Assembly: GCF_902459465.1 (NCBI RefSeq)
Contig: NC_047065.1
Span: forward strand, 2,542,001 to 2,606,000
Reading direction: 5' to 3'
Length of the DNA stretch: 64,000 nucleotides
Source of the DNA: Asterias rubens
Lineage: Eukaryota
The translations under genes and the position numbers were made by a program. Positions within the stretch are counted from its first letter, which is position 1; every line of letters begins with the position of its first letter. Positions 55,685 through 64,000 of the stretch are shown piece after piece. Under the pieces are notes generated by a model. That model worked only from the letters and a program-made list of their open reading frames with translations, was not told the DNA's origin and ran no database searches.

Positions 55685-56841
55685 CTGCAAAAAAACAAAA
55701 GTATTGGTTAATTAGGGAGAGTTGAAGGCATCATAATTGGTTATTCATAAATACCTCAGACAGTTTCGCTATTCCTATTGGTGGAGAGCGCGTCACGTGG
55801 GTGTGTATAAACCTTTGTTTATGACCGGTAAAAAGTGTCAATTCATGGGCGTGACACGCGACCTTGCACCTGTTCTTATAAGACAGTTTCTGCATTCCTA
55901 TTGGTCGAGAGCAACTGCTGAAACAGTTGTGCCACATCACGCTATACGAGCACAGCATTCCCTTATAAGGAGTTGTTTACCTGAGGGTGGCGGAGGGCTT
56001 TACCATTTCATAGCTGGAGGGGTGTTGTGTTGAAAGAAATCATTTAACAATTATAATTTTTGCATTTATTTTACTTTTTGACCAAAAAGTGATGATGTTT
56101 TTGACCGAAAGGTATTAATGAATGGGAATCAAAGTGTGTTGGTTTTCAACTAGTGGGTTAAACCCGCCGAGGCCTGGTTCTTTGTAATTTATCAAGAACC
56201 AGGCCTCGTTGGGATTAAACCACTAGTTGAAAACCGATTCACCACACATTGATTCCCTTGGTATTAATAATAATTAACTATTCTTGTATAACGCATATCA
56301 CAACCACAGAGCTGTCTCTATGCACTTTGAGATGAAAACAAAATAGAAGTTAAAGTTAATACAGATGAGGTAATTACAAAAGCAAAATTGAGTTGATACA
56401 GAAAGAAATACTGAAGGCTCTTGCAAAAACAGATATGTTTTAAACTTTCTCTGAATTTAAATTCACCGTTTGATTTGTCTGACTGTCATGGTTGAAATCT
56501 TTCTTGTTGATGGACATTTTTGTGAAGGAAATGAATAAGTCACAGAGTAGATGGTAATGAAGTATAACAACATCATAATATCAATAAGCATTTATTTATA
56601 GCGCCTTAACCAAGGCCTTAAAGCGCTTCACAAAACAAAACAAAAATCATCAACTACATAATACAGATAGAAAACACTCATCAAAACAGACATGATATTT
56701 GGTCCTAGAAAAAAAAAAGTATAAATATTTCATAATTTTAAAGGGCTGACATATATGTACACATGGTGTAGGCTATAAAATAGTACAAATGGGCTAAAAC
56801 AAATTTACAAAAAACCCATAGGGTTAAATAAGTATACTTAC

Positions 56842-56978
56842 TACTTGTATGTTGTGGAGATTGTTGGAAAGACTACAGCTACTGAAATAACGCACGTCTT
56901 GGTCTAAATCTTTCTGCAACTCGGTCAGAACTTCAATCATCTTCTCATAGCATGGATTCGCCATAGTTTGGTAAAATT
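56842..56978 (-). CDS. Probable penultimate exon of a HEAT-repeat PP2A-A/PPP4R1-like phosphatase regulatory subunit
   Basis: Branch-like ctcactaat plus ttattccgcAG acceptor, GTAAGT donor, 137 nt open: FYQTMANPCYEKMIEVLTELQKDLDQDVRYFSSCSLSNNLHNIQV. LQ.D.D.DVRYF resembles the C-terminal HEAT repeat of PPP4R1/PP2A-A (from memory). Confidence 0.6.
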
Positions 56979-58005
56979 CTGCGGAATAATTCAAGAGTAT
57001 TAGTGAGTTATGTTAACTGATGATGGCGACAAAAACAAAACTGGAGCCGTTTTTGTCCTTGTGCCCTTTTGTGCCTTTGTTATTTTTATTGTCTGGATCG
57101 CCTTTAGATAGTGATTATTTTCCGCTTTTTGGTTATCCGCAGGCTTGTTCTCTGTGTAGTCTTATTTGTATTGCCTATTCTTTGTATGTTCTGTTTGCCT
57201 GAAAATAAATAAATAATTAATAAATAAATAAAATAAAATTTCAAAAAGAGCCAAGATAGATCTTCACCGTGTATCAATCTTAATTGCTGAAGTATGATGC
57301 CGCAATACAAATCTTTATAGTGACTAAGTGATTTGTATTTCGACTTCAGACTATGCTTAGGATGAGTTGTTGATTCAACCTCTGGAGAACCTCTGTGATT
57401 TTCACATTTTTTTGTCAAAAACGTGACGACTATTTGCACCGCTGTGGGCGTTGAGGGCGACTGACTCCTTGTCAGTCGCGATTCTGGTGTCCACCGGATG
57501 GACGTTTTGGGCGGCAGGTCCCAAAGTTTTAAAAAGATATGTTCCTCGTGACCGAATTACCATCGGGAAATCGGGAGTGGACGGCAATGGTGAAACCACT
57601 GGCGTCGATGGCCTAAGACCAAGGTAGTATCTTTGCCTTCGGGGGAAAATTAAGTTTTCTTATTTTCGACCGTTTAGACCCATGTGTGGGAAAATGTGTT
57701 TCACTTGCCGGGCACAATGGCGGCCGGTCTTTGCGCTTGGGCGCATTTGTATAAGGGACATAAATGGTGCCTTTGTTAATCGTTTAGTGGTTAACAATGG
57801 CACGTTCCTTGATGGTATCAGGGGTCCATGGTGGTCAGTGGATTGCATGAGTGGGTACATGGGTGTCGCATGAGTGGGTACATGAGTTAAAGTGCAGGTG
57901 CCAGCGGGCACGCAGGCATAATATAAGAGTGTTTCATTATATGCATGTACGTTGCAACCTACCCTGTGTTTCTACCTCCATGCTTTACCGGTACAATTCT
58001 TAAAG

Positions 58006-59303
58006 ATGGACGAGTACACTGCTGTTGAGGAGAAAGCGGACGCCTACGGCGACGTGGCGGCCGACAAAGCCGCCCCCCTTTTCCGAGGTCTATGCTCTAC
58101 CTTTCGGGTTTCAGTGGAATGCTTTAACTCCCTTCTTGATGATGGCTGGGACGATCCGGATCAACTAATGAACTTGTCGGCTGACTGGCGCAGCCAGGTT
58201 TTGGCATTGGCACCAAATGGGGGTCAGAAGCGGAACTTGGAGCTTCTGCTCGACCGTGTGGATGCAGGGCCTCTCGACGGGCCAGCACCAAAGAGGCGAC
58301 GTGTTCTGCAGCTGGCGGCCAAAGAGTTCGACGTTCCAGCCGGCCGGAAGGACGCAGCGGTCGTCGTCCCTTTTGAGGAACGTCCCGGCAGTTCCACCGG
58401 TGCGCATGCACCAGAGGCAGCGGTTGCAAAGGAGTCCGCTTCCCCACAGGTATTTCCTTAATTTGTGTAGCCCCATATGTCATGCAATATTAATAGGCTC
58501 CTTGACTATTTTGCATTCTATCTGTTGCTCATTGTTTGCTGCTCTCAGAAGCTTTGTTCACAATATATAGAAGTGGGGTATGAATCTATTTAAATTTGGA
58601 TTTGGTCACTGTTTGGTTGCAGTCGGTCGCAAGGGGTGTATCGCTGTAGGCAGAGGGGGGCTGCGGTACTTCATTAGTATTGCGTTAAGATTGCTTTGCA
58701 GCAGTTGACTAAACCTATTTTATCATGGTAGAGAGGACCATCGAGGTATGGTGGTGTGTTGAGCTGACCTGATGCACCATTGGGGGTCGTACTAGTTAGT
58801 TAATATATTCGGTGCTTCTGTACCCTAGATAATGGTTCGGGAGTTCAGTGTCCAAATGGGGAAGATTCCCTTTTAATTTGAAGCTTTGCATCCATGTATT
58901 AGATAAACCCGTAAAAGAGTTGGTGTTTTAAATGGGAGTGCCTATTTTTTGTGAGCCTTGCATAAGGGTAGTGCCCTAGTAATGAACATGGAAAGTGGGG
59001 GTTTTAAATTGGTAGCGCCCCCTTTTGTTTAGCTTTACATCGGGCAGTGCCCCAAGTATAATTAACCCGGAAAAATCGGGTGTAAATGGGGAGTGCCCAT
59101 CCTTGGTTAGGTTTGTACTCGGAATACCCCAAGTATTGAGCCCGGAAAATCGGGTGTTTTAAATGAGGAGTGCCCATCTCTGGTTAGCCTTAGTTTCCTT
59201 CGGGGAGTGCCCCAAGTATGTTCCCGGAAAATCGGGTGTTTTAAATGGGGAGCGCCCATCTTTGGTAAGTGTTAATTCGGGGAGTGCCCTAAGTAATGAA
59301 CCC

Positions 59304-59352
<49 letters not shown>

Positions 59353-59428
59353 GGGTGTCTTAAATGGGGAGTGCCCATTTTTTTTTGGGTTTTCCTTAGG
59401 GGAAGTGCCCCAGTTAATGCCCCCCCCC

Positions 59429-59468
<40 letters not shown>

Positions 59469-61042
59469 AGTGCCCATCTTTCTTTAGTTTTCCTTCAGGG
59501 AGTGCCCCAAGTTATGAACCGGAACAAATCGTGTGTTTTAAACGGGGAGTGGCCATTTTTGGTTAGTTTTCCTTCGAAGAGTGCCCCAATTAAGGAACCC
59601 GTAAAATCGGGTGTTTTAAACGGGGAGTGCCCATCGTTGTTTAGTTTTCCTTCGTGGAGTGACCCAAGTACGGAACCCGGAAAAATCCGGTGTTTTAAAT
59701 GGGGAGTGCCCATCTTTGTTTAGTTTTCCTTCGGGGAGTGCCCCAAGTATGGAACCCGGAAAATCGTGTGTTTTAAATGGGAAGTGCCCATCGTTGTTTA
59801 GTTTTCCTTCGGGGAGTGACCCAAGTACGGAACCCGGAAAAATCCGGTGTTTTAAATGGGGAGTGCCCATCTTTGTTTAGTTTTCCTTCGGGGAGTGCCC
59901 CAAGTATGGAACCCGGAAAATCGTGTGTTTTAAATGGGGAGTGCCCATCTTTGGTTAGTTTTCCTTCGGGGGGGGGGGGTGTCCCAATTAATAAACCCGA
60001 AAATTTGTGTTTTAAATGGGGAGTTCCCATCTTTGGTTAGCTTCCCTTTGGGGAGTGCCCCGAGTATTGAACCCGGAAAATCGGGTGTTTTCAATGGGGA
60101 GTGCCTATTTCTAGCTAGCTTACCTTAGGGGAGGGCCCCAGGGAATGAGCCCAGAAAAATGGGTGTTTTAATCGGCGGTTAGTAAGGTTTAGCTTTTCAT
60201 CGGGGAGAGTCCCAAGAATTGAGCCGGGAAAAAATGGGGAGTGCCCATCTTTGGTTTTACATAGGGGAGTGACCCCATAAATAAAAGGGGAGTGCCCTGA
60301 GAAATGAACCCAGAAAATGGGTGTTTCTAGAAGGGGAGTGCCCCTCTCTTGTGGTCTTGGTCGGCACTGGGGCGTCCCCCGTTTTGCTTGGGCCTTGGAA
60401 GTTAAGGAAATGTGGGGAGTGCATCCCCTACGTATAGACGTATTTTGCCCGTTACAAGGGGTTGCTATATAAGACTAGAGCTCAATAAAATTAGCTCCTT
60501 AAAGAAGGGTTAGCAGTTTGTTTGCACTCGTATCACGTTATATTTGTTCACCGCAGGCAAAATCGGCTCTGGAAGTCCATAAACCTGGCAGGCTTCAGTT
60601 ACTCAAGGCTTGCACCGAGACCGGTTACGATCGTAACGTAGCCTATGTCATGGCTCTCCTTCGTAAGTACGTCTCCGAGTTCGTTCCTCTATCACCCGAG
60701 GACATCAAAGAGAAACAGTTGTATGTCAACCTTCTGTCTGATTGCAACAAGCACGTTGAGGCCAAGACGCCTGGCATAGCAATGTACATCTATAAGTCAA
60801 TTACTGGGGAAGATTCGGACAAGCGTCTGCGCTTTGCAAGAAAGCATCTTGGTCACATCGTCCCTCCTGGTGATGTCAAACCTCGCTCAGCGGCCCAGAG
60901 TGGCACAGCCTTCAGAGCCGGGCAGCCTCAGCGACAGGGTTTCAGACAATTCCGTCAGCCGGGTGTGCCGAGAGACAGGGATGTCTGTTTCCGATGCCGT
61001 AAAAGGGGTCATTTTTCTCGAGACTGCAAGGAAATACTTTAA
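58006..61042 (+). CDS. gag-like ORF1, predicted as two exons (58006-58449 + 60557-61042), 309 aa
   Basis: CAG|GTATTT phase-0 donor at 58450 and tatatttgttcaccgcAG| phase-0 acceptor at 60556 join in frame (..ESASPQ|AKSALE..). Ends in CFRCRKRGHFSRDC (CX2CX4HX4C). Confidence 0.7.
58910..60345. repeat. 78-bp tandem satellite, ~18 copies, inside the predicted gag intron
   Basis: Unit aaatcgggtgttttaaatggggagtgcccatctttgtttagttttccttcggggagtgccccaagtatggaacccgga; two GGGGAGTGCCC sub-repeats per unit; degenerate at both edges; poly-A runs at ~59307-59350 and ~59431-59465. Confidence 0.93.
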
Positions 61043-61283: not shown

Positions 61284-61513
61284 ATCACGTAGAGTACTGT
61301 ATCGTTTATGGTGTTGTGGTTTAGTGGCTCAAATAAAACGATATGAGCGGTTGGCAGTTTGACGCTAAGAAATTACATTTGTGAGTGAGTTGTATTCATG
61401 ACTTATTGTCCGAGTTTTCTTTTCCCTTTTATATATTTTATAGACCGTTCATTGGCCGTTGGAAATGTTTTACAAGCTGTGCTTTAAACGGTTTCTCTCT
61501 TGATTAAACCTAG

Positions 61514-62458
61514 GAGTATAGGCGGTACTTGAAGATATTGGGAACCCATGTGTGGGAGAGCTCATCTTGCTACCCCTTTGATCCTGTTGCAGCTCAGGCG
61601 GCCAGGCGGCGCCAAGGTTCGTGTATCTGGGTAGATATATCCGGAGCTGCTGCAGGGCCCCCCGATGGATCAGAGCCAACTCCGGCTGAAGTTCTTTCAG
61701 GTGTTTGCCGGCCTAATTTTCAAGCCCTGCGTTTTCGAGACCCAGATGTATTTGTAGCTGGAGGTCTCCACGATCATCCCCAGGCGTGGGATGACATATT
61801 GGCTGAGTGCCCTCACGCCGGTCAGCAGATAGGGCAATGGTTGCGTCAAGGCGTAGACTTGTTTGAGTTTTTCCAACACTTTAGAGGAGAATACCGGGGT
61901 AGAACCTTTGACTCGGCTATCCCGCCACCCATGTACTTTTCTAACGCCCCTATTTGCAAGGAATTCATCCCTTTCATTAATGAGACAATTTTGAAGCGCC
62001 TTGTAGAGGGGTCAGTGGAGCTTATTGGGGCGGTAAAAAGTACAAGACCGCCGAGGTGTGTCAATGCGCTCACCATCGAACCCAACAAACCCAGATTAGT
62101 TTTGTCGATGAAGGGGCCAAACCTCTGGTGTAAGGATACACCTTTCAAATTAGTTCCATTGGGGGAAATTGTGAAATCGATTGGTCGGGGTGGAAAGTTC
62201 TCGGGAACCGACGACGCTCAGGGATACAAACAAATCCTTCTAAATGAGAGGTCTAGGACCTTCTGTGGTTTTGAATGGGCGGGATTCTATTTTGTTGACA
62301 CTACTCTCCCTTTCGGTTTCAAAAACAGTGCCTACATATATTCCTCACTTGGGTTTTGTCTCTCAACCTGGTTAAAAAACAGGGGCATTCACACAGAAGT
62401 TTGGATCGATGACCGTTTCATTGGAGAGTGTGGTGGAGAGGGGAAGTCTTGTTCCTAA
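61514..62458 (+). CDS. pol part 1: reverse transcriptase N-terminal half
   Basis: IEPNKPRLV, TDDAQGYKQILL, FEWAGFYFVDTTLPFGFKNSAYIY, WIDD. Open from 61514, directly after cctAG. Confidence 0.88.
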   Translation, partial: EYRRYLKILGTHVWESSSCYPFDPVAAQAARRRQGSCIWVDISGAAAGPPDGSEPTPAEVLSGVCRPNFQALRFRDPDVFVAGGLHDHPQAWDDILAECPHAGQQIGQWLRQGVDLFEFFQHFRGEYRGRTFDSAIPPPMYFSNAPICKEFIPFINETILKRLVEGSVELIGAVKSTRPPRCVNALTIEPNKPRLVLSMKGPNLWCKDTPFKLVPLGEIVKSIGRGGKFSGTDDAQGYKQILLNERSRTFCGFEWAGFYFVDTTLPFGFKNSAYIYSSLGFCLSTWLKNRGIHTEVWIDDRFIGECGGEGKSCS

Positions 62459-62489
62459 AAGCAGAATGTTTGTTTTTGTTTGTTTGCAG

Positions 62490-64000
62490 GGCTCGATCAA
62501 CGATTCGAGTCAAATGGCTTGTACAAGGGCTGCTAGAGCGTTGTATGTAGTCTGTTACATGCAGTCACGCCTTGGATACTTCATCAACCTGAGGAAGAGC
62601 CAATTGCAGCCGGTTTCACGGATGGTGCATTTGGGTCTAGGGGTTTGCTCAGACTCCCTATCTTTTTGGATACCGGATAAGAAGAAGTGCTCATTCGCCC
62701 GGGTTAGGGAGGACATGTTGAAAGCGGGCTCGGTGCTTCTGAAAGAGATGCAGCGCTTTGTAGGGAAATGCCAAAGCTTCATTTTAGTGTTCCCTGCGGC
62801 TTCCCTTTTTGTCCGGGAGTGTTGCTCCTTTATGGTCAAGTTGGATGAGGTCACACCTGTTGTTTTAACTCAACCGGTACGCGATGAAGTGCTCTTTTGG
62901 CGTTTTGTCGACTCATTTTCAGAGCCTATCCCATGGAGGAAAGAGCGGCACTTGACAGTAAGGTTGGCGTCGGATGCCTCTGGTCATAAATGGGGTGGGG
63001 TTTTGTCACTTCCCGGTCAAGACGCCATCACCTTCGGCGATTATTGGTCATCCAATGTGCAAGTTATAACAGACATCTGTTACAAAGAGGCCCTGGCTTT
63101 GTATTTTGTTTTGCTGTCAGTAATAGATACACTCTGGGACAGAAGAGTCGACGTGCAGGTGGATTCGCAAAGTCTCTTCCATGCGTGGTCAAAGTTGAGA
63201 GCAAGGTCCCGAGCTCTCGCAGAGGTATTAAAGATGATTTTTGCTCTCACCCTAGAAGCTAATTTCGACCTAAAGTTGGAGTGGGTCCCAAGTGGGGAGA
63301 ACCAGGCAGATTTTCCGTCCAGGGAGCTTTCTAGAGCGGACGCTCGTCTTACAGCATCGATGTGGCATTTCCTGCAAAGGGAGCTGGGTGGAAGTTCGGG
63401 GTTTTCATGGGATCTCATGGCACTACCCTCCAACGTTCCGAAAGGCCGTGATGGAAAAACCTTAAAGTTCTTCTCAAGATTCCCAGTTCCAGGCTCGTCA
63501 GGGGTGAACGTGTTTGCACAGTCATGCCCTCGGGGTGAGAAGCTGTATGTTTTCCCTCCCTTTGTGCTAATTCCAGCTCTGATCAAGCTATTCATCGAAT
63601 GGGGAAATGTGTCGGTGACAATAGTAGTGCCGAAGCACCACCATCCAAGGTCCTGGTGGCCACGGTTAGTGTCTTTTGCGACACGGTCTTTGCGCCTAGC
63701 GGAACTCGGTCAGACAGGCGTCCTGGAATTTCCGACGAGGCGAGGATATGGAAAAAGCTCAGAGGGCCTTCGATTCGAGCTTTGGGCATGCGAGTGTCGT
63801 TTTCCTGCAGATAGTCGGATTTCGAGGGAGGTTTGTTTGCCCGCTCAGCACCCAGTGCTTCTAGTATCTGATTCGATGTTCAAGGGTATGAGGGGTTTTG
63901 GTTGGCCAGCGTCGCTGGGCGTCAGGTTGAGCGTAAATGGCGGAGCAAGATTAGGAGCCTTGTGCAGCGTTTTGGCACAGTCCTGTCGAGCAGAGAAGCC
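62490..64000 (+). CDS. pol part 2: RT C-terminus, RNase H, adenine-methyltransferase-like domain, SGNH-like start (open to window end)
   Basis: Manual translation gives ~503 codons without a stop (absent from the ORF track, presumably because it runs off the window): RLGYFINLRKSQL, QRFVGKC; RNase H LASDASGHKWGG / KEALA / VDSQ / ENQADFPSR; MT WDLMA..SN, GVNVFAQ, YVFPPF; then VLLVSDSMFK...NGGARL. Confidence 0.85.

Follow-up and report, generated by a model that had tools for sequence, protein, structure and literature searches.

This locus raises the question of how a retroelement can express a reverse transcriptase (RT) whose frame no good ATG opens. For the window (the whole analysed stretch of 64,000 nucleotides from Asterias rubens contig NC_047065.1), the original prediction was that an upstream coding exon could serve as a shared leader which is spliced either to gag or to pol. 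Our analysis supports this idea through the conservation of an acceptor at 61513, through RefSeq models that join leader and gag and through the old copy L052, but it also reveals the idea to be incomplete, as there are four acceptors and pol consists of two frames.

The element is 8.7 kb long and spans 57430 to window-equivalent 66136, its sequence being followed past the window end in locus L046. The 5' end is formed by repeat A1 (57430-57487, + strand), which is 100% identical to A2 at window-equivalent 65852-65909; the 3' repeats B1, A2 and B2 occupy window-equivalent 65778-66136 in L046, and the order of the repeats is A1 ... B1 A2 B2. The coding features, likewise on the + strand, comprise a leader exon of 148 codons with an ATG start (58006-58449), a gag body with a CCHC zinc knuckle (60557-61042; zf-CCHC E 1.2e-5), an N-terminal half of the RT with N-terminal region, fingers and palm up to the WIDD motif, followed by a stop (61514-62458), a C-terminal frame with the palm helix and thumb of the RT, RNase H, a methylase-like region and an SGNH hydrolase (62490-64000, continuing to window-equivalent 64385), and an ALOG tyrosine recombinase (window-equivalent 64451-65713 in L046). 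RVT_1 and RT_RNaseH profile matches are found together with the tyrosine recombinase, in which the ALOG domain (E 8e-15) lies N-terminal to the catalytic domain; the Phage_integrase match is weak here and stronger in relative L094 (E 2.6e-7). Between RNase H and the hydrolase lies a stretch of ~190 residues whose motifs we take to be methylase-like; the window's own region has no Pfam match, and a Dam match is present in 2/37 aligned relatives (best E 2.9e-9). The hydrolase is fused to the end of the C-half frame, ahead of the recombinase. Judged by its domains and repeats, the element is a tyrosine-recombinase retrotransposon with split direct repeats, PAT-like by structure and with an ALOG-type recombinase. 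Its closest named relatives are found in the starfish Patiria miniata, and no relative was detected among the viral contigs searched.

The element is inserted antisense between two HEAT-repeat-like host-gene exons (window 56824-57012 and L026 4765-5076, both on the - strand). Positions 1-46000 of the window are occupied by a 10-13 kb unit in four to five tandem copies of 95-99% identity; its + strand has zinc-finger exons, and exons of the signal-peptide, coiled-coil and fibrinogen-like kinds lie on its - strand (domain labels assigned by eye).

Three of the 25 genomic matches to the element are full, near-identical copies. Over the five frames, one of the other two matches the window copy at every position and the other departs from it at a single position, and the flanks of the three are unlike each other. 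The in-frame stops between the frames are therefore not a sign of decay, and transposition of the element is, by the same copies, recent. All remaining copies are ~90% identical and form a defective subfamily, in which the leader exon is missing in 14/14 diverged copies with an examined 5' end and the DD motif is altered in 8/8 copies checked. Consequently, conservation of an acceptor within this subfamily says little on function. The copy alignment took in 23 copies, two fragment matches being left out. The subfamily (G000 copies L004-L023) is the larger group and mostly keeps its terminal repeats; the contigs of RNA libraries mostly match it, and it seems to be mobilised in trans.

The leader exon comprises 148 whole codons directly ahead of the GT at 58450, which makes this donor phase 0. 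By a crude donor score, it ranks 9/591 among the GT sites of the element. Two diverged leaders of the same genome also finish with CAG followed by GT in phase 0, and a scan of 11 distant loci yielded two with a candidate leader and phase-0 donor, one unconvincing case and eight with none. The exact leader-end pattern gave 5 matches, including the three full copies, versus 4 in the control. The 5' ends of a second, diverged family were seen at L127 2455-3690 and G000:C14 5227023-5227849, with a leader ~50% identical and a phase-0 donor; in L127 a similar repeat opens the 5' end, and a defective-subfamily copy comes after it. An acceptor-like AG directly ahead of the leader ATG (window 57960-58005) and a donor-like GT at ~57625 hint at a 5' untranslated intron. 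The predicted first intron, from leader to gag body (58450-60556), contains poly-A runs and a 78-bp tandem array (window 58900-60300); the defective subfamily retains this array at ~80% identity with differing lengths, and it is possibly a cis signal.

Which acceptor opens pol? The two AG sites originally proposed, at 61443 and 61513, are both present and both in phase 0, as are donor 58450 and the gag acceptor at 60556. The lack of a suitable start codon was also borne out: the RT frame has its first in-frame ATG at 61931, encoding residue 140, far downstream of the conserved N-terminal part of the protein, and no in-frame ATG precedes 61514 in 23/23 aligned copies. From 61444 the frame runs for only 19 codons to a TGA, with the RT in the +1 frame relative to it, and this route cannot reach the RT, just as had been foreseen; the TAG of the site and the closed frame behind it (61416-61503) are kept in 23/23 copies. 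From 61514 to 62458, in contrast, the frame is open for 314 aa with RVT_1 similarity. Immediately upstream, the RT frame carries TAA (61505-61507) and TAG (61511-61513), the latter doubling as acceptor end and in-frame stop. A continuous pol overlapping the 3' end of gag, an arrangement named beforehand as one that would speak against splicing, was rejected, because an in-frame stop lies 0-2 codons before 61514 in 23/23 copies.

By a simple home-made pyrimidine score, 61443 ranks 2/515 among the AG sites of the element and 61513 only 32/515. The sites alone are not striking; as the alignments read, it is the conservation in relatives that lifts 61513 above chance. Within the copies the TAG of its tract (61492-61513) is kept in 20/23, and the same column recurs in 5/5 relatives and in L092. 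The five in question are those of the 29 RT-frame relatives that extend upstream of the first conserved residue; in each of them a Q stands directly before that residue, after residues of the pyrimidine-tract type. These extensions would be explained by intron-blind gene calls, the Q representing an acceptor CAG read in frame. L092 (51% identity) shows a pyrimidine tract and TAG at the equivalent place in phase 0. Since relatives open at this place in phase 0 and the frame behind 61443 is closed by a stop in all 23 copies, 61513 is likely to be the pol acceptor, and 61443 was rejected for this role. Also rejected was a mini-intron between 61444 and 61513, for which there is no plausible in-phase donor. 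Site 61443 may be unused, or may be an unproductive or attenuating acceptor draining transcripts from pol. Between gag and pol, L092 also has another strong acceptor-like site (458-700), opening a closed frame of ~76 codons; this is a possible counterpart of the 61443 site.

The same arrangement recurs along the element. Phase-0 acceptors also precede the gag body (at 60556), the second RT frame (at 62489) and the recombinase (at 64450, rank 4/515 among AG sites), which have no early ATG at the homologous start, and all four downstream acceptors match the phase of the single donor 58450. The CAG of the gag acceptor is kept in 7/7 diverged copies aligned over it. At 22/27 frame openings, taken from the window element and from 11 related loci, the best AG is in phase 0, compared to 230/540 control windows (nominal p 4e-5; the rows are related and the upstream stop lies inside the scan). 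A better AG in another phase exists at the other five openings, including the window's own RT opening, and two of the five are the same place in related recombinase frames. Loci L094 and L098 have the gene order recombinase, gag, pol, with gag and pol opening in phase 0 and the recombinase showing a phase-2 CAG and a few bases on a phase-0 AAG; at L093 8571-9227 the SGNH hydrolase is a frame of its own after the recombinase, behind a phase-0 acceptor.

Two further observations bear on the joins themselves. In four RefSeq gene models from Patiria miniata, a leader homolog passes into the gag body at precisely the residue predicted. In the old copy L052, the leader homolog is directly joined to the RT start at CAG/GAT, and no gag lies within 10 kb; we infer that this joint is what reverse transcription of a leader-to-pol spliced RNA would leave. 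L052 stands alone, no sibling of it having been found, and is an old, damaged copy that bears other deletions. Taken together, splicing of the shared leader to 61513 appears highly probable from the genomic evidence.

In the RNA contigs of five runs no spliced joint was seen. The data of these runs were contigs only, mostly from the defective subfamily, and leader and pol were compared separately, a design in which a leader-to-acceptor joint could appear only as a loose end, and the absence of such joints is therefore no proof against splicing; no loose contig end was found at any predicted splice site in the five runs. The joints that do occur in RNA contigs match deletions of the defective subfamily or terminal repeats, and none has GT..AG ends. 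One contig of 333 bases crosses donor 58450 unspliced. The five runs were drawn from 10 listed, with a best RNA share of 0.13. The lack of spliced joints, together with the middling score of 61513, is what could be held in favor of a scenario without any shared leader, where each frame would use its own downstream ATG via reinitiation or internal promoters and the acceptors would be chance. Yet 139 residues of a conserved protein precede the first ATG of the RT, distant relatives repeatedly show phase-0 openings, and the RefSeq models join leader to gag; such a scenario is decidedly improbable.

If a shared leader is spliced to pol, the break within the RT has to be explained. The first RT frame stops 14 residues past the DD motif, and the remainder lies in the +1 frame behind the acceptor at 62489, which ends a short spacer (62459-62489), is in phase 0 and is the top-scoring AG of the element (rank 1/515). 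Among RT relatives of 172-550 aa, to which the search was limited, the frame stops 7-20 residues past the DD in 22/25 relatives with the motif (four further matches are without it). The three that continue are two distant relatives and the close relative P0030, in which one frame continues across the DD region; longer RT relatives amount to 1 gene model among 3899 candidates. A search with the C-half without length filter returned 10 matches of at least 44% from its start, none of which, among the best 150 of 2979, has the DD part. Five of the six C-half protein relatives that extend upstream show a Q after a hydrophobic run (one may be the window's own family). In the DNA around the split, which was seen for three families, L091 and L068 have the same kind of site as acceptor 62489. 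A quick tree of 52 rows groups the 25 split rows with one gene model in a single branch of support 98, versus 26 continuous rows; 5 rows, including P0030 (too short), were left out. From this tree the split looks like one derived event. The N-half profile matches foamy virus and other RT chains, covering foamy RT 210-295, and the start of the C-half weakly matches foamy RT 323-367 (E 0.6), which places the break inside the palm. The loop that holds it varies in length among continuous relatives.

Could the break be plain damage? A scenario of dead copies, mobilised by another element and carrying inherited defects, can point to the missing leaders (14/14) and altered DD motifs (8/8) of the diverged copies, which indicate that mobilisation in trans happens in this family. 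But the break occupies the same position in relatives down to ~50% identity, which by itself already largely refutes this scenario, and the three full copies have no other interruption in any of their five frames. It is scarcely credible.

Programmed +1 frameshifting by the ribosome close to the stop at 62456, with the acceptor-like tract being incidental, could bridge the halves in the window, where the two RT frames overlap (62376-62458), and the frames likewise overlap as +1 in L068 and probably in P0035; the TCC before the stop presumably resembles an antizyme shift site. In L091, however, a stop at the acceptor of the C-half, ~110 bases past the N-half stop, closes that frame, and frameshift bridging is thereby excluded there. 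P0034 appears to be -1, as read from its sequence, and the pyrimidine tract with an in-phase AG recurs in relatives. We regard frameshifting as very unlikely.

Unlikely too, if less strongly so, is a Pol that profits from shared-leader splicing but remains one chain, its halves being joined at 62490 by a non-canonical short intron or a second splice that takes out the stop behind the DD. Acceptor 62489 is strong and in phase, joining the region just past the DD to 62490 would leave a loop whose length falls in the range of continuous relatives, and RefSeq model P0001 jumps from just past the DD to a site further down, some donor thus being predicted in that copy. Against such a join, neither the window nor L091 contains a canonical phase-0 donor (no phase-0 GT or plausible GC between DD and stop), the residues after the DD vary among the 22 relatives and allow no fixed donor position, and the gap from stop to acceptor in the window is only 31 bases. 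The simplest reading of the sequences, and one we rate as somewhat probable, is that the RT consists of two chains, each with the leader.

What the leader could contribute is suggested by its conserved part, residues 19-94 (58060-58287), which is predicted as five helices (pLDDT 78). The top five structural matches of this domain are SAM domains, with a Z of 5.7-6.9 across 62-71 residues (rmsd 3.4 over 71 residues at Z 6.9 and 2.7 over 65 at Z 6.6), values below the tool's threshold of Z 8 for a sure match. Neither Foldseek nor Pfam gave anything significant for the domain, and the leader has no sequence match in Pfam or PDB. In the ESM Atlas the leader is similar to SAM clusters at 0.82-0.85, which are leads only; a model of the whole leader has pLDDT 53 and as its top structural row a MutY-type glycosylase. 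The predicted fold is thus, on a weak match, SAM-like. SAM domains oligomerise, and so the presence of this exon on every product would have a reason. The proposed role as an oligomerisation tag is the weakest step of our scenario.

From the structure of the element, its phases, stops and conservation, as described above, we infer the following donor-acceptor joins. Donor 58450 would be joined to 60556 for Gag, to 61513 for the RT N-half, to 62489 for the RT C-half with RNase H, methylase-like region and hydrolase, and to 64450 for the recombinase. Product amounts would be set by the choice of acceptor, and unspliced RNA would be the template for new copies; use of 61443 would yield the leader plus 19 residues, lowering Pol output. 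More speculatively, the two RT chains, separated within the loop that follows the catalytic DD hairpin, would re-associate, the SAM-like leader domain on every product might aid this association, and the same domain could gather all four proteins into one particle. This model as a whole, in which four frames without an early start codon are fed by alternative splicing of one leader and the RT is made as two chains, seems probable to us. More tentative, and slightly short of an even chance, is the broader proposal of a marine-animal retrotransposon clade in which one spliced exon puts a SAM-like oligomerisation tag on Gag, on the recombinase and on both halves of a naturally split two-chain RT.

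Among described elements, the ALOG-containing DIRS1-like retroposons (PMC3537659) share the zinc-knuckle Gag, RT/RNase H, ALOG recombinase, direct repeats and, putatively, the methylase-like region, and they occur, as here, in starfish and other marine animals. In the accessible text of that study, Iyer and Aravind 2012 judged all animal ALOG-type copies inactive from stops and fragmentation (PMC3537659), and neither "splic" nor "intron" occurs in it. Unlike the elements described there, as far as that text goes, three copies are intact here under the spliced reading, the RT lies in two frames, and an SGNH hydrolase ends the C-half frame. The echinoderm form of Pat1-like elements (SpPat1 type), in the available portion of PMC4157794, has the A1 ... 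B1 A2 B2 repeats, the Gag zinc finger and, putatively, the methylase-like region in common with our element, and by our own reading also internal repeats placed behind the recombinase; that portion describes neither a leader exon nor acceptors nor a split RT. This comparison is by structure and not by tree, the quick RT tree holding no named DIRS-order references. Ngaro-like elements with SGNH (PMC9210276, PMC3783388, PMC8547959) share split direct repeats, recombinase and hydrolase; as presented in the accessible parts of these reports, a methylase-like region is absent from them, SGNH forms a frame of its own downstream of the recombinase, and their frames overlap, whereas here the frames are separated, each opening at an acceptor, and SGNH is fused before the recombinase. 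The putative methylase-like region and the position of SGNH speak against Ngaro membership, and DIRS1 proper was rejected because the element ends are direct rather than inverted terminal repeats.

In the spliced pol mRNA of foamy virus and the spliced gag mRNA of copia (PMC6669543, PMC2194720), according to the parts of these papers available, splicing and not frameshifting separates Gag and Pol, as proposed here. Foamy virus makes Pol independently of Gag and in copia splicing makes Gag, whereas the products here would share a 148-aa coding exon; neither system is described there with one coding exon on four products or an RT cut inside the palm. In the open literature, to the extent of its accessible text and with subscription papers and Repbase reports outside the scope, we found no account of shared-leader splicing or a split RT in these elements. 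Introns have been reported for some algal and fungal recombinase elements.

How RT and recombinase are produced from one transcript in DIRS-order elements is, as far as the accessible literature goes, not settled, and our model offers four exact junctions. If it is true, an RT split just past the catalytic DD, and kept that way throughout a clade, would represent a novel enzyme architecture and would show where an RT tolerates a break. Annotation based on open reading frames would misread this group, and animal ALOG-type elements that were called dead from stops and fragmentation (PMC3537659) could be intact and active.
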